DNA of 64,000 nucleotides, from NCBI GenBank assembly GCA_041665545.1, contig JBAYIQ010000001.1, positions 67,495-131,494 on the forward strand, read 5' to 3'. This DNA is from Patescibacteria group bacterium. GTDB taxonomy: Bacteria > Patescibacteriota > Patescibacteriia > UBA1558 > GWA2-36-10. The notes under the pieces are model-generated. The model ran no database searches. It was not told the origin of the DNA and was given only the letters and a program-made list of their open reading frames with translations. This document shows, one piece after another, positions 3,536 through 62,484 of this stretch (position 1 is its first letter; each line of letters begins with the position of its first letter). Both the position numbers and the translations under genes were made by a program.

Positions 3536-5215
3536 TTATTCCTCAGTTTTTTCTAATTTTACACCAAACCAGCCGAGTTTATTTTCTAGTTTTTTATTAA
3601 CCACCAAACGCATAATGGTGTGAGTCACAGTAAGAGCGGAAAACATGGATACCAAAATACCAATACCCAAAGTTATAGCAAAACCTTTGATAATCGAAGT
3701 GCCAAACCAAGCCAGAATCACACAAGTGATAATTGACGAAAAGTTTGAATCTCTAATTGATGGCCAAGCTCTCTCAAATCCATCTTCAATGGCTGTAACT
3801 AAATTTTTGCCATTGTAAAGCTCTTCTTTGGTGCGCTCAAATATCAAAACATTGGCATCAACGGCCATACCAATAGATAGAATAAAACCAGCAATACCGG
3901 CCATAGTCATAGTCACTGGTATTAATTCAAATATTGATAAACTGACTACGGTATAGATACCCAAAGCAATGACAGCCAAGAAACCCGGCAAGCGATAAAA
4001 CAGCAACATAAACAAAGCGGCGGCCAAGAAACCAATAATGCCAGCCAACAAACTCTGGGTCAAAGAAATCTTACCTAAAGTCGGTCCAATAGTCTGTTGG
4101 GTGAGCAAGCTAATCGGCACTGGTAAAGCACCCAAGTTCAAATCTTTGACTAATTGCTTGGCTTCGGCAATAGTAAACTTGCCAGAGATCTGAGCTGAAC
4201 CATCTTTGATGGCTTCTTGAACTACTGGACTGGAGCGCAATGATCCATCCAAAAATATACCAATTGGTTTTCCAACATTAGCTTCAGTCAAAGAGGCAAA
4301 AACAGTTGTGCCTTCTTCATCAAAATCAAGTAAAACCATTGGATCTTGGGTATTGGGGTCAAATTGTAGTTGCGCTTTTTTTATATTTTTACCACCCAAG
4401 GTAGTATCCAGCCAATTATTATTCAAATCAGCGTTTGCTTTGGCAAATAAAATATGCGCGGCATGCACTTCTAGTACACCATCAACTGTAGTGCGCTCCT
4501 CTATTTTTTTTATAATATGATAGCCAAACTGAGATTCCACTAATTGCTTACTGATTTGTCCGGATTTTAAATCTTCAAAAATAGCTTTGTCAAACTCGGG
4601 TACAAAAGTATCTTTTTTGGCCCAGCCCAAATCACCGCCAGCGTCTTTTGAGCCCGGATCTTCGCTGAATTCTTTGGCTAGCTTGGCAAAATCCTCATTT
4701 TTTAGGGCGCGCTTCAAGACTTCTTCGGCTTTCAAACGAGTAGCGTCATTATCAGTTGAACTTGTATCTGCTCCTTGAGTTTTGAATTCTAATAGCGGTG
4801 TCTTATCAATGATTTTTATAGCTTCATTGACATCAGTAACGCCGGCTAATTCTACAATAATACGATAATTTTCTCCACTGTAGTTGGTCTGGACCAGTGG
4901 CTCAGAAACACCGTAGGCATTGACCCGTCTTTCAATGACGTCCCGTAGGGCTTCCACACGGTCACGACGCTCGCTATTAGGCACGTTGGTAACATCGGCC
5001 TGATAAACAAGATGGGTGCCACCCTGTAAATCAAGACCCAGATGCATTTTGACCTTATTTACCCAATGATCTTTGGGTAAAAAAGACACATTTGGCAGAA
5101 CAAAAAGTATAGCCATTATTGTCAAAATAGCTATAAATATCCCTGTCCATCTGAGCCGATTTTTGCTAATAAGCTTGTGTTGCTGTGGATAACTATATTT
5201 ATTCATAATTTCCAA
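3536..5215 (-). CDS. secD: Protein translocase subunit SecD
   Basis: 559 aa, N-terminal TM, large periplasmic domain, C-terminal 5 TM. Precedes secF. Confidence 0.85.
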   Translation of the reverse strand: MEIMNKYSYPQQHKLISKNRLRWTGIFIAILTIMAILFVLPNVSFLPKDHWVNKVKMHLGLDLQGGTHLVYQADVTNVPNSERRDRVEALRDVIERRVNAYGVSEPLVQTNYSGENYRIIVELAGVTDVNEAIKIIDKTPLLEFKTQGADTSSTDNDATRLKAEEVLKRALKNEDFAKLAKEFSEDPGSKDAGGDLGWAKKDTFVPEFDKAIFEDLKSGQISKQLVESQFGYHIIKKIEERTTVDGVLEVHAAHILFAKANADLNNNWLDTTLGGKNIKKAQLQFDPNTQDPMVLLDFDEEGTTVFASLTEANVGKPIGIFLDGSLRSSPVVQEAIKDGSAQISGKFTIAEAKQLVKDLNLGALPVPISLLTQQTIGPTLGKISLTQSLLAGIIGFLAAALFMLLFYRLPGFLAVIALGIYTVVSLSIFELIPVTMTMAGIAGFILSIGMAVDANVLIFERTKEELYNGKNLVTAIEDGFERAWPSIRDSNFSSIITCVILAWFGTSIIKGFAITLGIGILVSMFSALTVTHTIMRLVVNKKLENKLGWFGVKLEKTEE

Positions 5216-5967: not shown

Positions 5968-8073
5968 TTATTTTTTTTCTGATTCAGCAGTGGCTAGATC
6001 AAAAGTTTTTTGCTCTTCCCAGCTCTTTTCATCATAAACCTTGATTTCATTCTCACCAATTATATAGAAAGAGTCGTTGACAAAGATAGCGCGTTTGACT
6101 TGAGTCATTTGAGCGGCCTTGACCAAAGATAATTTATCATTGTCATAGCTCAACACATATCCGCCTTTACTACCCGGTATAAAGAAAACTTTATACTTTT
6201 GGTCCATCATAAAAGCTCGAGAATTACTATTGACTTCAGTATAATATTCATCTAAAGAATATTTATATAATTCTTTTGGATCAGAAGCATTGGAAACATC
6301 AAACAAAGAAATTTTTACTTTGTTGGCTTCCTCACCAACACCAATAATTCTATCTTTATTTATGGGATGCAAATAGGAAGAATAGCCGGGTATTTTCAAC
6401 TCGCCTTTTTTAATTGGATTCTTGGCATCACTCAAATCAATCACATAAAATGGATCCGTCTGCCTAAAAGTCACTATGTAAGCTTTGTCTTCAATAAATC
6501 TGGCGCTGTATATGCGTTCAGTCAAACCCATGTCTAATAATTTACCAACGATTTTGAGATCATCACCCAACACATACAGATCATTGGCGCTTTCACCGTT
6601 GCTACCAAAAGACGAATCCCACATACCGCCCAAAGTAGTAGCGATTCTCAAATTGCCTTTGTATTCGTCTAGCGACCATTGATTTAGTGGCGAACCAGGA
6701 ATACCACCGCTAGCTTTGACCTTCAAATTGTCGATGCCAATTTTTACAATTCCCGTATTAGCTAAATTTCTTTTATTATTTTTATAATAATTTTGAAAAC
6801 GATTTTGTAATTCAGTTTGCACTCGAAGTTGTTCGTCTTTACCCAAACTTTTTTGCCAATTCTCAATGATAATCTGTAGCTCCATCATCTTGGTGTAATT
6901 ACTCAAATCATAAGATTTTAGTTTGTTCACTTTTTCTTGAACACTAGCAGTCAGTAGATCAGTCGCCTCTTTATTAATAAAATCCGAATAAAAAGTGAAC
7001 ATATCAATTGACTGCGGATAAGTAATATACAAATTATCCGTTGACATATAGACCACTGATTGCCCCGCACTGGCCACAAAAGAAGTAGTGTCACCTACTT
7101 TACCAGACTTGATGTCAATCTTCATGGCCACATAAGTTGAATCAGCCGGGATTGGAGAAACTGGATGATAAATATCATTGCAAGCAATGCTAAGTTTTTC
7201 GTCATTATAAGTCAGTGGCTGAATAGGGCAGGGCTCAGTCCCATTGATATAAGTGTGGGTCACTAAATAAATATTATCATTATACAATCTGGCCTGATCA
7301 AATACTGTTTGGGAGTTGGAATCTAGCTTGATGGTCCACTTTTTTTCTGGTTTGGCTCGATTGCTAATATCATAGCCATTTATTTCATTACCAGAAAATA
7401 CCACCAACATATTATCTTTGACCAATAACTCGCCCGCCTTATCAATCTGGGATAATAATTTCATGTCAGTCAATGGCCAAGATTTAATAATATCGGTTTC
7501 AGCTGTTACTTGTTGTTGGGGATAATAGCTATCCACTGGAACTGGGACCATCATTCTCTCATAAGCATAATAATTTCCTTGCTTGGCATAGAAAATATTT
7601 TGACCATCAGTCTTTAAAACATCGGGCTCATCAATACCAGCCACTTGCACATTGGTTTCAGAAAATCTTTCGGCGTTAGCTGATCCGCTTCCACTAGGCG
7701 TGGTCTTGATGCTATCCTCCGCCATCATCGGAGCGTTCACCATAACATCTCTTGAAATAGTATTCATGCCACCATAGTAATCGGAGCTAGCCAGCAGCTG
7801 ACCTTGTGTGAGATAATCTTTGAATTCATCGACTGATTTGAATTTAGCCACTTCAGTACTAAAATCATAGTTACTTGTACCGTTGTTATTATTAATTGGT
7901 GGCAGTTTTTTCTGGCGATCATTAATATTGTTAGCTAATAAAAGCAAGCCGACCCCAATAACCAACAAAAATAAAACAATCACTAAAGATGCTTTCATGT
8001 TTCCGTAGTGATTAAGAATATTGTTGATTAATTTTTTTTGTTTTTTAGAATTTTTCTTTTTGTCTATTTTCAT
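5968..8073 (-). CDS. Secreted or membrane-anchored beta-propeller domain protein (Beta_propel-like)
   Basis: 701 aa with an N-terminal Lys-rich signal anchor. The C-terminal half has repeated strand-rich segments typical of a beta-propeller. Confidence 0.5.
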   Translation of the reverse strand: MKIDKKKNSKKQKKLINNILNHYGNMKASLVIVLFLLVIGVGLLLLANNINDRQKKLPPINNNNGTSNYDFSTEVAKFKSVDEFKDYLTQGQLLASSDYYGGMNTISRDVMVNAPMMAEDSIKTTPSGSGSANAERFSETNVQVAGIDEPDVLKTDGQNIFYAKQGNYYAYERMMVPVPVDSYYPQQQVTAETDIIKSWPLTDMKLLSQIDKAGELLVKDNMLVVFSGNEINGYDISNRAKPEKKWTIKLDSNSQTVFDQARLYNDNIYLVTHTYINGTEPCPIQPLTYNDEKLSIACNDIYHPVSPIPADSTYVAMKIDIKSGKVGDTTSFVASAGQSVVYMSTDNLYITYPQSIDMFTFYSDFINKEATDLLTASVQEKVNKLKSYDLSNYTKMMELQIIIENWQKSLGKDEQLRVQTELQNRFQNYYKNNKRNLANTGIVKIGIDNLKVKASGGIPGSPLNQWSLDEYKGNLRIATTLGGMWDSSFGSNGESANDLYVLGDDLKIVGKLLDMGLTERIYSARFIEDKAYIVTFRQTDPFYVIDLSDAKNPIKKGELKIPGYSSYLHPINKDRIIGVGEEANKVKISLFDVSNASDPKELYKYSLDEYYTEVNSNSRAFMMDQKYKVFFIPGSKGGYVLSYDNDKLSLVKAAQMTQVKRAIFVNDSFYIIGENEIKVYDEKSWEEQKTFDLATAESEKK

Positions 8074-11245: not shown

Positions 11246-11274
11246 TTGACAGAATTTACAATAAATGCTAATGT
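11246..11274 (+). promoter_or_regulatory. Sigma70-like promoter (TTGACA-17-TAATGT)
   Basis: TTGACAgaatttacaataaatgcTAATGT about 45 nt upstream of the RBS of the 11321 gene. Confidence 0.45.
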
Positions 11275-11320
11275 ATTTTATTATTTCGTACACCCCCAAC
11301 CCAATAAAGGATGGTGCGTC

Positions 11321-11686
11321 ATGATCGATATCCGTCAATTGCGTCAAGGACTTCTGATGCTGTGGGAACAGAGGAATCCACTCGGAAGTACAACGGGACT
11401 CATCCCCTGTGTCGTAGCTGAGGTGAAAGAAGACGCTTTTGGCATGATAGTGATGGACGATTTTCGCGTTGAGTGGGTTCATTTGGCTTCCAGCGAGATG
11501 CTTCTCAGCGAAGGTCTGCGACTGGCTTCCGAGGAAGATGTCCGCAGCTATCTGCAAGAACGTCGACGACTACTGGCCGACCAGGTCGCCAAGGCTCAGA
11601 GTCAACTCGAGGCAGCCCAGGAACGTCTTTTCTCCTACGATGCCCGCCGTGATTTTGTTCTGGCGACCTTTCCGCCGAAATCCTAG
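11321..11686 (+). CDS. GC-rich hypothetical protein (121 aa) with a predicted C-terminal coiled coil
   Basis: AAGGA RBS, ATG at 11321, about 55% GC. It is the only plus-strand gene within 49 kb. It has its own promoter and terminator. Confidence 0.55.
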   Translation: MIDIRQLRQGLLMLWEQRNPLGSTTGLIPCVVAEVKEDAFGMIVMDDFRVEWVHLASSEMLLSEGLRLASEEDVRSYLQERRRLLADQVAKAQSQLEAAQERLFSYDARRDFVLATFPPKS

Positions 11687-11826: not shown

Positions 11827-12489
11827 TTACTCTATTACTTCCGCTTTTTTTATCTTTATTTCTTCTAGTGGTCTGTCCGTAGCATCTGTTTTGCTAGTGG
11901 CAATAGCATCTACCACCTCCAGACCACTCACTACTCGGCCAAAAATAGTATAGTTGTGATCTAGAGGATAATCTTGGTGCATAATGAAAAATTGACTGCC
12001 ATTGGTATTGGGACCAGAATTGGCCATGGCCACTGTGCCACGCACATAGCCAGCTTGGTAGGAAGCGTTTTTAGGATCCAGTTCATCAGCAAACTGATAG
12101 CCCGGTCCACCGCGTCCCGTGCCAGTCGGATCGCCACCTTGAATCATAAATCCAGAAATTACTCGATGAAAAATCACATTATCATAAAAGCCCTTATTAA
12201 CTAAAGTCAGAAAATTCTCCACGGTCTTGGGCGCATCACTAGCATAAAGCTCGATAGTTATATCACCTTTATTAGTTTCGATTTTTACAATTGGCATAGT
12301 TTTTTGTGTTACTGATGTGTCCACAACTGTAGTGGTAGACAGCAAATTTTCATTAGTATTAATATTTAAATTTTCGTTATTTGGCGCCGTGACTTTTTGA
12401 TTAAATTTTATAAAAAATAACCAAAACAAGAGTAGTAATAAAATAAACACGCCAATAATTTTAATCCAATTTTTGTTTAAAAAATTCAT
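11827..12489 (-). CDS. Peptidyl-prolyl cis-trans isomerase, cyclophilin type, N-terminally membrane anchored
   Basis: HRVISGFMIQGGDP and FFI cyclophilin motifs. N-terminal TM helix. Confidence 0.85.
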   Translation of the reverse strand: MNFLNKNWIKIIGVFILLLLLFWLFFIKFNQKVTAPNNENLNINTNENLLSTTTVVDTSVTQKTMPIVKIETNKGDITIELYASDAPKTVENFLTLVNKGFYDNVIFHRVISGFMIQGGDPTGTGRGGPGYQFADELDPKNASYQAGYVRGTVAMANSGPNTNGSQFFIMHQDYPLDHNYTIFGRVVSGLEVVDAIATSKTDATDRPLEEIKIKKAEVIE

Positions 12490-12558
12490 TGTGTAACTAA
12501 AAAATTATTTTTCAGCAAGCCACCTGAAAAATTCTTATATATTTTAAGAGGTCTTAAC

Positions 12559-12837
12559 TTACAAAGAACTCTCAGCAGACTCCAGTGCTCTGGCTATCCT
12601 GCTTCTAGATACTTCTGGAATATCAGCAGACTCGATCTGGCCCTTTAAAGCACCCAAAGTGCTCTTGAGAGCTTCCCTTTCTTCAGCCGAAGGGCCACTT
12701 TCTGACACTTTTGTGGCAAAAGCATTAAGACAGTTTTCAACCTCTCCATAATCACCACCACTTAAACCTTCCATAGCCCACTTTAGTTCATCGGCGGGCT
12801 TAATACCTTCTTGTTCTTGTCTTTTTTCTAAACTCAT
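12559..12837 (-). CDS. Hypothetical acidic soluble protein (92 aa)
   Basis: ORF with elevated GC (about 45%). Third gene of a 3-gene operon of unknowns. Confidence 0.5.
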   Translation of the reverse strand: MSLEKRQEQEGIKPADELKWAMEGLSGGDYGEVENCLNAFATKVSESGPSAEEREALKSTLGALKGQIESADIPEVSRSRIARALESAESSL

Positions 12838-12868
12838 AATTTTTTTATTTATTAATTAATTATTATAT

Positions 12869-13216
12869 TTAATCCTCTTTTTTCTTGCCGAGAAATATCT
12901 GTCGTAAAGCTTGAACACGTTCTGGACCAATTTTTGCTCCCATGCTATTAAGCGCCTCCTCGTCTTCTCTGAGTAAATCTTTTGCCGCTGAAGCAAGCTT
13001 GCTTTTAAGATAGTGATGATGATCAATAAAACGCAGAAGCTGTTCGCAATATTCTAGTTCTTCAATAGTCAAGCCATCTAAGGCTGGCGGTAGCAATCTT
13101 TCTTTTAAACTTTTTGCCACCTGCCAATCCATCATGTTTTCTGCTGCTTTGATTAATTCCGTTTTTTTCTCTTCTATAATTTGTTCGGGAGTTTTTGGCG
13201 CTTCTGGTCTTTCCAT
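12869..13216 (-). CDS. Hypothetical protein (115 aa)
   Basis: ORF with elevated GC. Second gene of the operon. Confidence 0.5.
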   Translation of the reverse strand: MERPEAPKTPEQIIEEKKTELIKAAENMMDWQVAKSLKERLLPPALDGLTIEELEYCEQLLRFIDHHHYLKSKLASAAKDLLREDEEALNSMGAKIGPERVQALRQIFLGKKKED

Positions 13217-13234
13217 AATAATATTATAATATTT

Positions 13235-14257
13235 TTAATTTTTAAGAATATCGCATTTCTTTTGCAAAGCTTGGAGTGATAAATTTTTTATCATTACGTC
13301 AAGATTTTGATCGCGATTGCCCATGCGAGCAACATTGTGTTGGCTAAATAGGTAGCTGTTTTCTTTTGTAGGTGATCCTTCAGGATAATCCAAATTTTCA
13401 TTTTTACGATCGCCAGCCAGCATCAGACGGCCACGCTTGATATAGGAAATGACTATCATCAAAGTTTTGTAATCGTTATAGTCAGTCAGTAAGGCGTCCA
13501 AAGCGCGACTGACCGAGGCCTCATCACCTTCGGAGCGACGAGCTTCTTCCATACCAATGTTGACTATAAAATCCAAGAGGTCAGTTGCTCTTTTGTCAAT
13601 TTCCGCCGTTTCCTTGTCTTGGTTGTAGACGATGTCGGGTAGATTGAGTACTGGCTTGGCTAATTTATCTTCGCCTTCAGACATAAAGATCACATCAGAC
13701 ACCAAGACTTCACCGACGGCTGTTTTCTCATGAATCTGAGCTAAATAAACGCCAGCTCGACGCACTGCTTCAAAGCGGTCAATATTCATCAATGCTTCAT
13801 TGCCGATCAGGTCGGCTTTATAAATATCTTGGAGTGCCGTACCCTGAGTGTAGAGTTCAGGTTTGAGTATTTCTAGACCTTTTTCGTGCTCGCCATAATA
13901 TTCTTCCAGACCCAAGTTTCTCACATTATTCATGATTTCATTGGGACGACCACGATAGCGTTTGGGGCCGGGCATAAAAAACTTAAAAAACATTTTTGGA
14001 TGTCGACGGAGCATGTCCCAAGGATCTTTCATGACATGTTCATCGTAGTTTCTCAAAAAAATATCGCCCGCCTGGTCTACCTTGGATACAGGGCCACCCA
14101 TGTCATAAATCATGTGACCAGCTTCGTCTTGCTTGATGCGACCACCATAGACACCGACAGTGCTTTCATAGTTTTGATTGGGCAAACGAGACTCGCTCAT
14201 GACTTTATTTATGCGCTCACGCGCCACACCCAGTGGATTTTCAAAACCAAATTTCAT
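13235..14257 (-). CDS. Hypothetical soluble protein (340 aa)
   Basis: ORF with intermediate GC and no recognisable motif. First gene of the operon adjacent to the tRNA-Gln locus. Confidence 0.55.
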   Translation of the reverse strand: MKFGFENPLGVARERINKVMSESRLPNQNYESTVGVYGGRIKQDEAGHMIYDMGGPVSKVDQAGDIFLRNYDEHVMKDPWDMLRRHPKMFFKFFMPGPKRYRGRPNEIMNNVRNLGLEEYYGEHEKGLEILKPELYTQGTALQDIYKADLIGNEALMNIDRFEAVRRAGVYLAQIHEKTAVGEVLVSDVIFMSEGEDKLAKPVLNLPDIVYNQDKETAEIDKRATDLLDFIVNIGMEEARRSEGDEASVSRALDALLTDYNDYKTLMIVISYIKRGRLMLAGDRKNENLDYPEGSPTKENSYLFSQHNVARMGNRDQNLDVMIKNLSLQALQKKCDILKN

Positions 14258-14300
14258 TATAATTATAGATAATTTTTGTATATTAAATCTAAAAATGTTT

Positions 14301-14319
14301 TGGCTGCCGGATAGGGACT
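14301..14319 (-). pseudogene. tRNA-Gln 3'-end fragment (acceptor/T-arm remnant) plus duplicated downstream flank
   Basis: TGGCTGCCGGATAGGGACT matches the 3' end of the tRNA at 14600-14673. The preceding flank TATATTAAATCTAAAAATGTTT resembles that tRNA's own flank. Confidence 0.5.
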
Positions 14320-14507
14320 TCCGCGTCGCTCACCCATTAATTTTAATAAGTTGTTCGCTCCTTGTCCTGGGCAGCGCTCAAAGCTACGCCAGCTCACTTT
14401 GAGCGACGCTCGATTTATTCGCTACGCTCATATCTCGCTTCTGCCCGTTCGAGTCCCTTTCATGTATTTAATAACTGGGAAAAAATTTAAATTTATTTCA
14501 CATGACT

Positions 14508-14550
14508 TGGCTGCCGGATAGGGACTCGAACCCCAATTACCAGGGCCAGC
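14508..14550 (-). pseudogene. tRNA-Gln 3'-half fragment (about 43 nt, anticodon-stem 3' strand through CCA)
   Basis: Aligns to the full tRNA at 14600-14673 from the CCA back to GGGCCAG, then diverges. There is no 5' half. Confidence 0.55.
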
Positions 14551-14599: not shown

Positions 14600-14673
14600 T
14601 GGCTGCCGGACAGGGAGTCGAACCCCGATTACTAGGGCCAGAACCTAGCGTCCTACCATTAGACGATCCGGCA
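14600..14673 (-). tRNA. tRNA-Gln (anticodon CTG)
   Basis: Reverse complement folds as a canonical cloverleaf: acceptor TGCCGGA/TCCGGCA, D-loop AATGGTA, anticodon loop TTCTGGC, T-loop TTCGACT, encoded CCA. Confidence 0.8.
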
Positions 14674-14698: not shown

Positions 14699-14758
14699 CA
14701 ACGGTGACTCGCGAGGCGGGCCGGGGAACCTAGCGTCCTACCATTAGACGATCCCCGA
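14699..14758 (-). pseudogene. tRNA 5'-half fragment (first 32 nt) fused to an unrelated GC-rich tail ending in a T-run
   Basis: Reverse complement reads TCGGGGATCGTCTAATGGTAGGACGCTAGGTT. This matches the acceptor of the Gln(TTG) tRNA and the D and anticodon stems of Gln(CTG). It is followed by CCCCGGCCCGCCTCGCGAGTCACCGTTGTTTTTT. Confidence 0.5.
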
Positions 14759-14917
14759 ACAAATAAAAACTGGCTTTTTATTTTAAACTATTTACAACTT
14801 TAGACATAAATTATACAAGGTACGACTTGCCCGCCAAAACTCCGAAGGAGTGACGGCGGGTCCCCGAATGGCTATAAATAACTAAAAAATAATATAATAA
14901 TTCTGTTGCTTAGTCAA

Positions 14918-34563: not shown

Positions 34564-35029
34564 TGTCTAAATAACCCTGTAAGCCGAATTCTGTCGAGGA
34601 TGATCATCTATCTAGGCCCATGATTGCTCATGGGCTCAAGCGGTTTACCCGCCCCTTGATTTCTCTCAGGGCCTATTTAACCTTTCACCGAGTAGAGTTT
34701 ACCTCTTTTGCTTTGTCACCAAAGTAACGTGTCAGCTCATTATCTGACAATTTCACCCTTACCCATTTGACTCAGCCTTGCGGCTTCGCTCAGGGAGGAA
34801 TATTTTCTGTTGTACTTGTCTTGACTCTTGAGTCACCTCTCAAGCCAGTTGACGTTATCAACTACCCGCCCCGCAAGCGGAGCCATTGGTGTTCGGACTT
34901 TCCTCCCTGAACCACTCACTCCGTTCGGGTATCAGGGCCGAAGCCCTTTTACATTATTACGGCGTGAGCCGTGTACCCGAGCAAAGCGAGTGGTTCACGG
35001 CGATCATCTGGGTTATTTAGACGATTATT
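34564..35029 (-). ncRNA. rnpB: RNase P RNA, bacterial type A
   Basis: On the minus strand: GGGAGGAAAGTCCGAACAC (P4 5' strand), ACAGAAAATA, GGGTAAGGGTGAAA, ACAGAATTCGGCTTACAGGG (P4 3' strand), and a P1 helix CGTCTAAATAACCC/GGGTTATTTAGACA. Confidence 0.85.
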
Positions 35030-49058: not shown

Positions 49059-49126
49059 ATAAAGTAAACCAAAATGGCTAATTCCAGCCACTGGTAAGTA
49101 CTCTAAACATTCCCTAGGAGGTCGTG

Positions 49127-49753
49127 ATGGCAGCGATTCTGTTGTTCGCCTTTCAGGTCATCATGGCCTGGATCTACATGATTCCGCAGGTGATCGGCAT
49201 CCTGCATGGTAAGACCGGTGGTCTGACGCTGGCGATGTGGCTCATTTTCATGGGCTACCTCTTCGTCAGCCTCTCGTTATCAGTCATGGCCTGGAAAGAG
49301 AAGAGGGAGCGGATTAGGCTCTACACCATCATCATCTTTGCCCAATGGGTCGTCTTTATCTCTGCACTGTTCATCATGTGCATTGGATCAGTCCATTGGT
49401 CAAACGGTGACACGGCAGTATGCATAGCTGTTGTAGTGCTATCCATCTTCACTATTTCTCGCCATGGACTCAAGAACCCCATCACTCGTGGCTGGCTAGC
49501 AGTTTGGTGTAAGGGCATCCCCCAACTCTGGATGGCTTATACCATGTGGCACCAAGGTAGTGCTGAATGGCTACCGACCATTTCACTACTGGCCACCAAT
49601 GCTACAGCCATGCCTCGGCTGGTGCAGGTCTATCTGCAAGGCAAGCACGGTGGCTGGGACAGACCGACCAAAGCACTAATGCTGGGCGAGTCATCTAATG
49701 TCGGAACATGGCTAGTGGTAACACTGGTCTGGCTCACCCTTAGAGTGTTCTGA
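49127..49753 (+). CDS. GC-rich polytopic membrane protein with two IPQ-initiated 3-helix repeats (PQ-loop/SWEET-like)
   Basis: GGAGG RBS with a 5-nt spacer. About 6 TM. IPQ motifs at residues about 20 and about 130. GC about 55%, against about 33% in the flanking sequence. Confidence 0.45.
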   Translation: MAAILLFAFQVIMAWIYMIPQVIGILHGKTGGLTLAMWLIFMGYLFVSLSLSVMAWKEKRERIRLYTIIIFAQWVVFISALFIMCIGSVHWSNGDTAVCIAVVVLSIFTISRHGLKNPITRGWLAVWCKGIPQLWMAYTMWHQGSAEWLPTISLLATNATAMPRLVQVYLQGKHGGWDRPTKALMLGESSNVGTWLVVTLVWLTLRVF

Positions 49754-59733: not shown

Positions 59734-59761
59734 CTTTTCATTGACAATTTAACAAACCTTT

Positions 59762-59866
59762 GAAGCAAGGAAGCATTATCTTTATTTGGACGCTTGGATA
59801 ATGTGGAGCTAGTAGCGTAACCGGCAACAATTTTTGGTTACGCTTCCTAATGGGAAGTGTTTTTTG
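59762..59866 (+). promoter_or_regulatory. Structured RNA leader A (riboswitch-like) ending in an intrinsic terminator
   Basis: Conserved blocks GAAGCAAGGA / TTTGGACGCTTGG / GGAGCTAGTAGCGTAACCGGCA. Alternative 8-bp hairpin GCGTAACC/GGTTACGC. Terminator CTTCC..GGAAG plus TTTTTT. Confidence 0.45.
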
Positions 59867-61103: not shown

Positions 61104-62174
61104 ATGAGATTCGTAAGCGTTCTGCTACTGGTTGTGGCTTCCTCGGCGCTTCTGCTGGGTGGCTGCGAACAGAGCCCCACCACTCCGGTGGAAAACCTCA
61201 GCCCCGGACAGGAGCACAATGTCTTCCTGTCTACCATGTATGCCAACTACGGCATCGAGCAGTACCACAATGTCGATACCGAACTGGCTATCAATCGTGC
61301 CAGCAAGGTGTTCGCCAAGCAGCTGAACCTGCCCGAAGCCGAAGTGCGACAGCAGATGGAGCAAGGAATCCGGGTCTTCAACGACCTGGAAGCTGCTGGG
61401 ATCATCGATTTCGACCATTTCAAGATCATCGATCCGTCGGGGTTTGCTGAATACATCAGCAACCTCGACCCCGCCACCACCCCCGAAGAACGGCGGATGG
61501 TTCGAGACTTGATCGGCGATCTTGTCGCCACTGGCGCCGACAAGTCCCGAAGCTACGACCAGGTGGTGGCCAAATGGAACCACCACTCCGTCACCCAGCG
61601 GCTCACCAGCTGCCTGGACGTACTGGCGGCCAGTGATGAGTTCTGGACGACGCCCGACGCAGACAAGAAGCAACCCTATACCGCTGGCGAGGTCCAGATG
61701 TGGGATACCGGCGGAGCTCTGGCGGGAGCTTGGCTCGGTGGTCCCCTCGGAAGCCTGCTCGTAGGAGGGCTCACCTCTTATCTGGCAGCCGAATACTGCT
61801 CGCTCTGCCCGCCGGACGAACCGCCGCCGCCACCGCCGCCCCCGCCGCCGCCACCGCCGTCACCGAACGGTTATGATCCGCCGCCCGTCGTCCTGTCCGG
61901 TTTCATCTCTTTTCCTCCTCGCCACCCCGCTGGCTGGGCGGTGGTGGTCATGCTGATCGTCTGTGTCACGGCCTGGCTGATATTGCACAAGCGATATCAG
62001 CTTGGTAAGTTCTGGGGTTTGGGCATGATCATGCTGATCGGCTCCTTGTCCCAGATCGCCGCCAGCAGCATCAGCCACACCAACAACAGCATGTCGATCT
62101 TGCTGTTGGTGATTTCCAGCGTGATCGGAATCTGGCTCATTCGTCGCAACACCCAACGGCGAGTGTTGAACTAG
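61104..62174 (+). CDS. GC-rich lipoprotein with a poly-proline linker and C-terminal TM helices
   Basis: AGGAGG RBS. Signal peptide with lipobox LLGGC. PPDEPPPPPPPPPPPPPSP tract. Two or three C-terminal hydrophobic helices. About 58% GC. Confidence 0.6.
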   Translation: MRFVSVLLLVVASSALLLGGCEQSPTTPVENLSPGQEHNVFLSTMYANYGIEQYHNVDTELAINRASKVFAKQLNLPEAEVRQQMEQGIRVFNDLEAAGIIDFDHFKIIDPSGFAEYISNLDPATTPEERRMVRDLIGDLVATGADKSRSYDQVVAKWNHHSVTQRLTSCLDVLAASDEFWTTPDADKKQPYTAGEVQMWDTGGALAGAWLGGPLGSLLVGGLTSYLAAEYCSLCPPDEPPPPPPPPPPPPPSPNGYDPPPVVLSGFISFPPRHPAGWAVVVMLIVCVTAWLILHKRYQLGKFWGLGMIMLIGSLSQIAASSISHTNNSMSILLLVISSVIGIWLIRRNTQRRVLN

Positions 62175-62410: not shown

Positions 62411-62484
62411 TCGGGGATCGTCTAATGGTAGGACAGCGGCCTTTGAAGCCGTGAATTGGGGTTCGAATCCCTGTCCCCGAGCCA
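62411..62484 (+). tRNA. tRNA-Gln (anticodon TTG)
   Basis: Cloverleaf: acceptor TCGGGGA/TCCCCGA, D-loop AATGGTA, anticodon loop CTTTGAA, T-loop TTCGAAT, CCA encoded. Confidence 0.8.

Follow-up and report, generated by a model that had tools for sequence, protein, structure and literature searches.

The locus studied here raises the question of whether three adjacent genes of a Patescibacteria bacterium (contig JBAYIQ010000001.1), located beside a tRNA-Gln gene, constitute a functional module brought in by a mobile element, and what their products might do. The window, that is, the whole stretch of DNA analyzed, comprised 64,000 nucleotides (nt), and the genes code for proteins of 340, 115, and 92 amino acids (aa). 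They had been described in an earlier note as an operon of co-directional open reading frames (ORFs) adjoining a cluster of tRNA-Gln fragments, with a cyclophilin gene and a GC-rich ORF on the other flank. The three ORFs and both flanks were found in the window, the former on the minus strand at the following positions:

14257..13235, minus strand: 340-aa gene (ORF list), of a Patescibacteria-restricted family without Pfam match, its product having a predicted protein-kinase-like fold
13216..12869, minus strand: 115-aa gene, coding for an acidic orphan protein (isoelectric point, pI, 5.5) found in this species and one sister species only
12837..12559, minus strand: 92-aa gene, coding for an acidic protein (pI 4.6) of a narrow family, with four predicted helices that form two helical hairpins

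The most informative result concerned the 340-aa protein, which belongs to a Patescibacteria-only family with a predicted kinase-like fold and an unusual Glu-containing motif in the putative catalytic loop; no description of this family was found in the published literature searched. With moderate confidence, we consider that the trio consists of independent, real genes that are neighbors in a spot of gene turnover, the 340-aa protein being a kinase-fold phosphotransferase and the two small proteins adaptors or regulators.

The 340-aa protein family and its predicted fold

The 340-aa protein had 84 homologues, mostly full-length and with identities of 33–73%, and all those with an informative name came from Patescibacteria (Staskawicz-, Komeili-, Uhr-, Falkow-, Lipton-, Kaiser-, and Levyibacteria). 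When 1.84 billion representative proteins were searched exhaustively with a profile, just 124 clusters were retrieved, and members from different candidate classes were 45–50% identical. According to these results, the family is restricted to the Patescibacteria (candidate phyla radiation, CPR), sparsely distributed and strongly conserved. Several TPA_asm records of metagenome-assembled genomes (MAGs) that carry a 340-family gene are titled “uncultured Gammaproteobacteria bacterium” (among L007, L009, L011, L013, L020, L021, L030, and L043) and are probably mislabeled bins. One Falkowbacteria MAG contained two 340-family paralogues on different contigs (L015 and L022), and one representative protein of 800 aa (P0089) showed four stretches matching the family, which may reflect a tandem duplication or a fusion of the domain.

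None of the Pfam, NCBIfam, PADLOC, or PHROG models matched the 340-, 115-, or 92-aa protein above noise, in agreement with the lack of recognizable motifs indicated in the earlier note, nor did any of them show confident homology to core housekeeping families with a conserved place at this locus. Neither Pfam nor NCBIfam gave a match for any member of the 340-aa family, and the kinase families in Pfam (Pkinase, APH, RIO1, Kdo/WaaP, and others) were matched at E ≤ 1 neither by the window protein nor by 46 family members and 10 distant relatives. Sequence and profile searches of the PDB with the family retrieved no kinases, the only matches being due to chance (a designed helical repeat, TrpRS, and a TPR protein).

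The structure of the 340-aa protein was modeled with AlphaFold on a 46-sequence alignment (pLDDT 88.2, pTM 0.88). In its comparison with the PDB by Foldseek, a check that had been proposed for this protein beforehand, the best 50 of 599 matches were all kinase-fold proteins. Bud32/PRPK were the nearest structural neighbors (probability of 1.00 for PRPK), followed by Rio and by proteins of the APH, MTR-kinase, and maltokinase type. The 340-aa protein is thus predicted to have a bilobal protein-kinase-like (PKL) fold. In the model, a helix (residues 161–176) is followed by a loop that contains E183 and D188, by two strands (189–193 and 199–204), by P207-D208, and by a long helix (219–241). As modeled, this order of elements is that of αE, catalytic loop, β7, β8, DFG, and αF in kinases. 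Residue conservation was counted on an alignment extended to relatives of about 20% identity (n = 41 sequences), with the following results:

K99: 19/41, invariant among close members
R100: 39/41
R/K102: 40/41
E107: 25/41, moderate
D144: 40/41
H176: 38/41
G182: 39/41
E183: 37/41
Position 188: D in 30/41, N in 5/41
P207: 38/41
D208: 35/41
D226 and D229: 38/41 each
Y260: 40/41
H307: 38/41
N308: 34/41
R311: 37/41

The proposed motifs are K99-R100-Y-R102 (basic β3), G182-E183-x4-D188, P207-D208, D226/D229, and H307-N308-x2-R311; a Gly-rich loop, S32-TVGVYG-G39 (S32-x2-G35-x2-G38-G39), is also conserved. About 95 N-terminal residues are additional to the kinase core and contain invariant S58, G64-D65, R69, and D72-E73-H74, the C-terminal helical region being likewise extra. 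The Asp and Asn of the canonical (H/Y)xDxxxxN motif are not kept, and G182-E183-x4-D188 is found there, with the spacing and the acidic/amide character preserved. In this regard, the i/i+5 spacing of E183 and residue 188 is the same as in HRDxxxxN; residue 188 directly precedes β7, as does Asn171 of PKA; and the canonical kinase Asn occupies position 188 in 5 of the 41 sequences. On these grounds, we propose that the 340-aa protein, a cytoplasmic one, is an active, ATP-dependent phosphotransferase (an atypical kinase or an ATPase). The Gly-rich loop STVGVYGG and the basic β3 residues R100 and R/K102 would hold the nucleotide, E183 would stand in place of the usual catalytic Asp, and D/N188 and D208 would bind metal. 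Both the catalytic activity and these residue roles are inferred.

Several points weigh against this proposal. The kinase assignment comes from the predicted structure alone, and sequence and profile methods link the family to no kinase. Around 150–200 of the 340 residues align structurally to kinase-fold proteins, with an identity to Bud32/PRPK and Rio of 9–18% over the aligned parts. Residues were mapped onto kinases by the order of the secondary-structure elements and not by residue-level superposition; an hhalign comparison of the family profile with an approximate APH(3')-II sequence gave an uninformative probability of 0.4% and was not used for the mapping. Additionally, the canonical catalytic Asp, Asn, and β3 Lys are all replaced (E183, D188, and a K99 that is unconserved in the wider family), and these substitutions could mean that the 340-aa protein is a pseudokinase or performs a different chemistry.

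This last point is the basis of the alternative that survives best, in which the protein has the kinase fold and is no phosphotransferase. It would instead be a pseudokinase or scaffold, or it would carry out AMPylation or an adenylate-forming ligation like the IucA/IucC-type synthetases, or act as a Bud32-like ATPase switch. Besides the three substitutions, the invariant motifs of the extra N-terminal residues point in this direction, and Bud32/PRPK, the best structural neighbors, work as ATPases within KEOPS. However, acidic residues are present at all three catalytic/metal positions, residue 188 reverts to the canonical Asn in some members, the Gly-rich loop is conserved, and the identity across classes is at a level usual for enzymes, not for degenerate scaffolds. 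We therefore regard this alternative as unlikely and retain the phosphotransferase as the preferred reading.

Gene turnover and scars at the tRNA-Gln gene

The vicinity of the trio was examined by comparison with a sister genome (GCA_964540095.1, L044). Upstream of the 340-aa gene, an intact tRNA-Gln and several partial copies were found, as previously described, and the limits of the homology between both genomes could be located:

14726..14768, minus strand: copy of the tRNA-Gln 5' half, whose end is in the anticodon loop, with GC-rich sequence after it
14600-14673, minus strand: intact tRNA-Gln(CTG), immediately upstream of the trio, its 3' half differing from that of the sister tRNA
14507..14549, minus strand: displaced tRNA-Gln 3' half, which begins in the anticodon loop and, with its downstream flank, matches the 3' half and flank of the sister tRNA (attR-like scar)
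14279..14317, minus strand: third copy of the tRNA 3' end (TCCCTATCCGGCAGCCA, 14301-14317) with an AT-rich trailer (14279-14295)
14279, minus strand: left breakpoint, where homology to the sister genome stops, about 21 nt before the start codon of the 340-aa gene
13217..13234, minus strand: 18-nt spacer containing the right breakpoint, homology to the sister genome resuming at 13227
12481..12494, minus strand: breakpoint of an extra gene, a 173-aa AAA_33 gene that the sister genome has between the 92-aa gene and the cyclophilin gene

The sister genome was collinear with the window, with 86–91% DNA identity, over a type IV secretion system (T4SS)-coupling-like gene, DnaX, tRNA-Gln, the 115- and 92-aa genes, cyclophilin, and the GC-rich ORF. 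Window positions 14278-13228, which comprise the 340-aa gene and a few bases more, are replaced there by two unrelated ORFs of 49 and 223 aa. As judged from this comparison, the segment from tRNA-Gln to cyclophilin is a spot of gene turnover. The C-terminal stretch of the 223-aa protein of the sister genome (6932-7603) showed a weak similarity (30% over 36 aa, E 0.15) to the 92-aa family.

With respect to the partial tRNA copies, 0 such matches were expected in shuffles. Behind the intact tRNA-Gln there are about 50 nt of foreign sequence and then the displaced 3' half, both junctions being located at the anticodon loop, an arrangement which suggests that the 3' half of the intact tRNA came from an inserted element. 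The third 3'-end copy and its AT-rich trailer are common to both genomes and end exactly at the left breakpoint of the replacement; the trailer repeats the one behind the intact tRNA, and this copy is older than the other scars. Altogether, the tRNA-Gln carries scars of the integrase type.

It had been suggested that the trio is the cargo of a decayed element integrated at the tRNA-Gln and acts as a defense, toxin-immunity, or effector module. This explanation agrees with the scars and their anticodon-loop junctions, with the clean gene-sized replacements and indels downstream of the tRNA between the sister species, and with the coincidence of the left breakpoint with the end of the repeated unit of tRNA 3' end and AT-rich trailer. 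The AAA_33/Zeta_toxin-like gene at the same spot of the sister genome and the patchy, non-syntenic distribution of the 340-aa family are also in its favor. Nevertheless, the 17-nt tRNA 3' end (≤2 mismatches) was found in the 64 kb only at 14301-14317, 14508-14524, and 14600-14616, all of them upstream of the trio and none beyond it. The scar-bounded segments, also upstream, measure only about 50 and 190 nt, and the trio is outside every segment bounded by tRNA repeats. The ORFs annotated between 5968 and 20674 code for a beta-propeller protein, UppS, TypA/BipA, cyclophilin, DnaX, the T4SS-coupling-like ATPase, and unknown proteins, and none of them has an integrase or transposase domain. Furthermore, GC content and codon usage are host-like, the 340-aa gene is unlinked to the small genes elsewhere, and none of the three proteins had relatives in the viral-contig scans.

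As for a role in defense, PADLOC-DB 2.0 gave no significant match for the trio, the best E values being about 0.01 over short stretches (AbiEii and a type I S subunit), and for the replacement genes of the sister genome there were either no matches or weak P-loop ones. The locus is thus a weak “defense island” lead, because nothing in it matches a known defense or toxin-antitoxin system. Of the decayed integrative element, the variable segment and the tRNA scars hold, while a bounding repeat, a nearby integrase, and a composition foreign to the host were not found; we consider it improbable that the trio is its cargo.

The GC contents of the 340-, 115-, and 92-aa genes were 43.0, 39.7, and 44.1%, respectively, and not the 42–46% reported before. 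The mean of the 46 long ORFs of the window was 38.4%, with a standard deviation (SD) of 5.1% (TypA, for example, has 41.8%), and the z-scores of the trio ranged from 0.25 to 1.1. Since the three genes are within about 1.1 SD of the long ORFs of the window, they show no compositional anomaly, and the “intermediate GC” formerly attributed to them is not a real one.

Other traits of the surroundings were also recorded. An insertion of about 101 nt (14760-14860, in 14752-14868, minus strand), absent from the sister genome, begins with a GC-rich hairpin (CCCGCC...GGCGGG) and has an 8-bp direct duplication, TTCGGGGA, at its flanks; the sister genome has two GC-rich insertions of about 40 and 29 nt (6310-6440) within the same pseudo-tRNA 5' half. 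On direct reading, the MAFFT alignment being messy, these insertions look like small GC-rich elements similar to miniature inverted-repeat transposable elements (MITEs) in an AT-rich genome. A structured RNA at the GC-rich block 14295-14470 was considered and discarded, as the fold z-scores of both strands (−1.8 and −1.45) were not significant and Rfam found only tRNA. On the downstream side of the trio, where TypA/BipA is also located (DnaX being upstream of tRNA-Gln), the two flanking genes are:

11827-12489, minus strand: cyclophilin gene (annotation)
11246-11686, plus strand: GC-richer 146-aa ORF, beyond cyclophilin

The latter ORF has 50% GC and is on the strand opposite to all its neighbors. 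It is kept in the sister genome with 79% aa identity and a ratio of nonsynonymous to synonymous substitutions (dN/dS) of 0.40, and it had no family match in Pfam, NCBIfam, PADLOC, or PHROGs beyond noise. Other GC-rich ORFs of the window are at 49124-49753 (52% GC) and 61104-62174 (60% GC), and a c-di-GMP-II riboswitch (67.7 bits) was identified at 59752-59835 on the plus strand, upstream of the 60%-GC region at 61–62 kb. The window also contains the RNase P RNA (34564-34951, minus strand) and a second tRNA-Gln (TTG) at 62411-62484.

Linkage of the three genes

In-frame codon scores of the trio were 0.25–0.38 per codon (window mean, 0.285), and those of the other five frames were negative in all three ORFs. 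The dN/dS values relative to the sister genome were 0.17 for the 115-aa ORF and 0.14 for the 92-aa ORF (0.12 for cyclophilin); therefore, both small ORFs are real genes under purifying selection. The 115-aa protein has a 116-aa copy in the sister genome (91% identity) and no homologue beyond that species. Relatives of the 92-aa protein were found in the sister genome (82% identity) and in a second genome, L045 (a 91-aa protein, 57%), together with a distant 100-aa protein in a third one, L020; neither the 92-aa family nor the conserved DNA of the left flank was found in scans of JGI metagenomes. The 92-aa model (pLDDT 84) consists of two helical hairpins, and its structural neighbors are only generic HEAT/ARM/TPR-like proteins. 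According to these searches, both small proteins are confined to this species and its close relatives, and their most probable role is that of protein-binding adaptors or regulators.

The three genes might still form a true operon, with the small helical proteins regulating the kinase-fold protein, serving as its substrates, or acting as its adaptors. They are on one strand, separated by 18 nt (340/115) and 31 nt (115/92) according to the ORF coordinates, instead of the 3–19 nt previously indicated, and no terminator was predicted inside either spacer, a configuration that leaves room for some functional coupling. One terminator-like site was predicted inside the coding part of the 340-aa gene. 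Contigs of the species obtained from three independent samples share an identical arrangement. Besides, the distant 100-aa relative of the 92-aa family in L020 lies about 1 kb upstream of a 340-family gene whose product is 47% identical to that of the window, with trpS between them. This neighborhood and the short spacers tell against the full independence that we attribute to the genes.

However, the sister species keeps the 115- and 92-aa genes without the 340-aa gene at the site, and the other 340-family loci gave no match to a hidden Markov model of the 92-aa family or, in a jackhmmer search, to the 115-aa protein. In L045, the 91-aa relative is a lone gene on the strand opposite to its neighbors, and each gene of the trio has a TATAAT-like box of its own before it. 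The 340-family gene had no recurrent neighbor in about 40 loci of other genomes. The commonest one, a GT2 gene (7/36 loci), was rejected as a linked partner, as it reflected clade-level synteny in Staskawiczbacteria. The closest relatives of the 340-aa protein (70–73% identity) are encoded in unrelated contexts, in many cases with genes of opposite orientation on either side, with neither tRNA-Gln nor a 115/92-like ORF nearby. The synteny that could have sustained a three-gene module is thus not conserved in other genomes. As a functional trio the three genes are not conserved, and they happen to be neighbors, the 340-aa gene being a stand-alone one, and we judge a true operon very unlikely.

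Regarding their expression signals, promoter-like matches (13 vs. 7.6 ± 3.1 expected) showed no significant enrichment in the AT-rich DNA. A Shine-Dalgarno sequence was absent before each gene of the trio (12838-12868, 13217-13245, and 14258-14280, minus strand) and before cyclophilin. In the 340- and 115-aa genes, a TATAAT box is located just 4–7 nt ahead of the ATG (ctataattataATG and ttataatattattATG), a proximity that hints at leaderless transcripts or at very short leaders.

A further possibility is that the 340-aa family, specific to Patescibacteria, consists of atypical kinases or ATPases of a Bud32-like kind, with a Glu-based catalytic loop and a role linked to tRNA or translation, the 92-aa family being a loosely linked partner. 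Such a role is suggested because in two distant lineages, those of the window and of L035, the gene directly follows tRNA-Gln(CTG), because it abuts trpS in L020, and because the fold is best matched by the tRNA-modification kinase of KEOPS; the 92-aa family is included because two distant genomes have it no more than 1.3 kb away from the kinase-fold gene. We find this proposal highly unlikely. The order in L020 (4428-6948) is tRNA-Pro on the minus strand, the 100-aa relative of the 92-aa family, TrpRS, and the 340-family gene, without a gap after trpS. In L035 (Patescibacteria UBA6023, 3728-5207), a member with 39% identity is preceded on its own strand by tRNA-Gln(CTG), at a distance of about 240 nt, and T-arm-like fragments (GTTCGAGACC, GGACTCGAAC, GTTCGAGTCCC...GCAAGCCAAGTCGTG) are found between both genes; by a rough estimate, the chance of such adjacency is about 0.04. 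The adjacency shared by L035 and the window may be ancestral or a coincidence. As a feature of the whole 340-aa family, tRNA adjacency was rejected, since a tRNA was found ≤1.5 kb upstream in 4 of about 37 loci, with about 3 expected in a rough estimate from tRNA density.

Finally, the AAA_33 protein of the sister genome (8358-8879) is polynucleotide-kinase-like, with its best score against models of that type (TIGR04075 kinase domain, E 1.8e-15), and is also above the Pfam Zeta_toxin cutoff (28 vs. 22.3 bits). Its gene is 78 nt downstream of the 92-aa gene; a P-loop kinase gene is absent from the window locus, the AAA_33/Zeta_toxin-like gene being found after the 92-aa gene only in the sister genome. 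That the 92-aa protein is the epsilon-like antitoxin of this kinase, kept as an orphan by a window genome that lost the toxin, is the most improbable of all the explanations considered: the proximity of both genes and the small, acidic, and helical nature of the 92-aa protein, which epsilon antitoxins share, speak for it, but the best-scoring models for the AAA_33 protein are of the polynucleotide-kinase type, this protein is, with 173 aa, shorter than zeta toxins, the 92-aa relatives in L045 and L020 have no AAA_33 neighbor, and no PADLOC or toxin-antitoxin model was matched.

Significance and comparison with known systems

The genomes of CPR/Patescibacteria are small, and yet a large share of their genes has no known function. 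One such family, not seen by Pfam and NCBIfam, is now placed by its predicted structure in the kinase-fold superfamily, with a concrete proposal for its putative active site (G-E-x4-D/N, P-D, and the basic β3 residues). If active, it would represent a family of kinase-fold enzymes confined to episymbiotic bacteria and with Glu where kinases use Asp, which would be useful for the study of kinase evolution and of CPR physiology. In addition, the locus combines gene turnover and integrase-type tRNA scars in a reduced genome without a nearby integrase.

When compared with tRNA-targeted integrative elements, the locus differs in the lack of a compositional signature and of an integrase in the annotation between 5968 and 20674, and in the position of the trio beyond the last repeat, the repeat-bounded segments being of about 50 and 190 nt. 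It resembles them in that displaced partial copies come after an intact tRNA-Gln, oriented like it and joined at the anticodon loop, and in that the content of adjacent genes varies between sister species.

With the APH/choline-kinase type (MTR kinase, maltokinase, N-acetylhexosamine kinase, and aminoglycoside phosphotransferases), the 340-aa protein shares a similar size (300–400 aa in that type), the cytoplasmic location, and the stand-alone character. In contrast to the Brenner motif HxDxxxxN of these enzymes, its family has G-E-x4-(D/N), and none of 46 members matched PF01636 at E ≤ 1.

Relative to Bud32/PRPK and Rio, the family differs in having no sequence-level similarity and no Pfam match, in the presence of Glu for the catalytic Asp, of Asp for Asn, and of an unconserved β3 Lys, and in being bacterial and exclusive to Patescibacteria. 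Bud32 is a minimal kinase of about 200–260 aa with Kae1/TsaD-type and Cgi121/Pcc1 proteins as partners, whereas the 340-aa protein has about 95 extra N-terminal residues and C-terminal helices; unlike Bud32/PRPK, its family has no recurrent neighbor, and hence no recurrent Kae1/TsaD partner gene, in 36 loci. Like Bud32/PRPK and Rio, however, the 340-aa family is predicted to have a minimal kinase core without activation segment and a short distance from the DFG-like Asp to the αF-like Asp (D208 to D226/D229).

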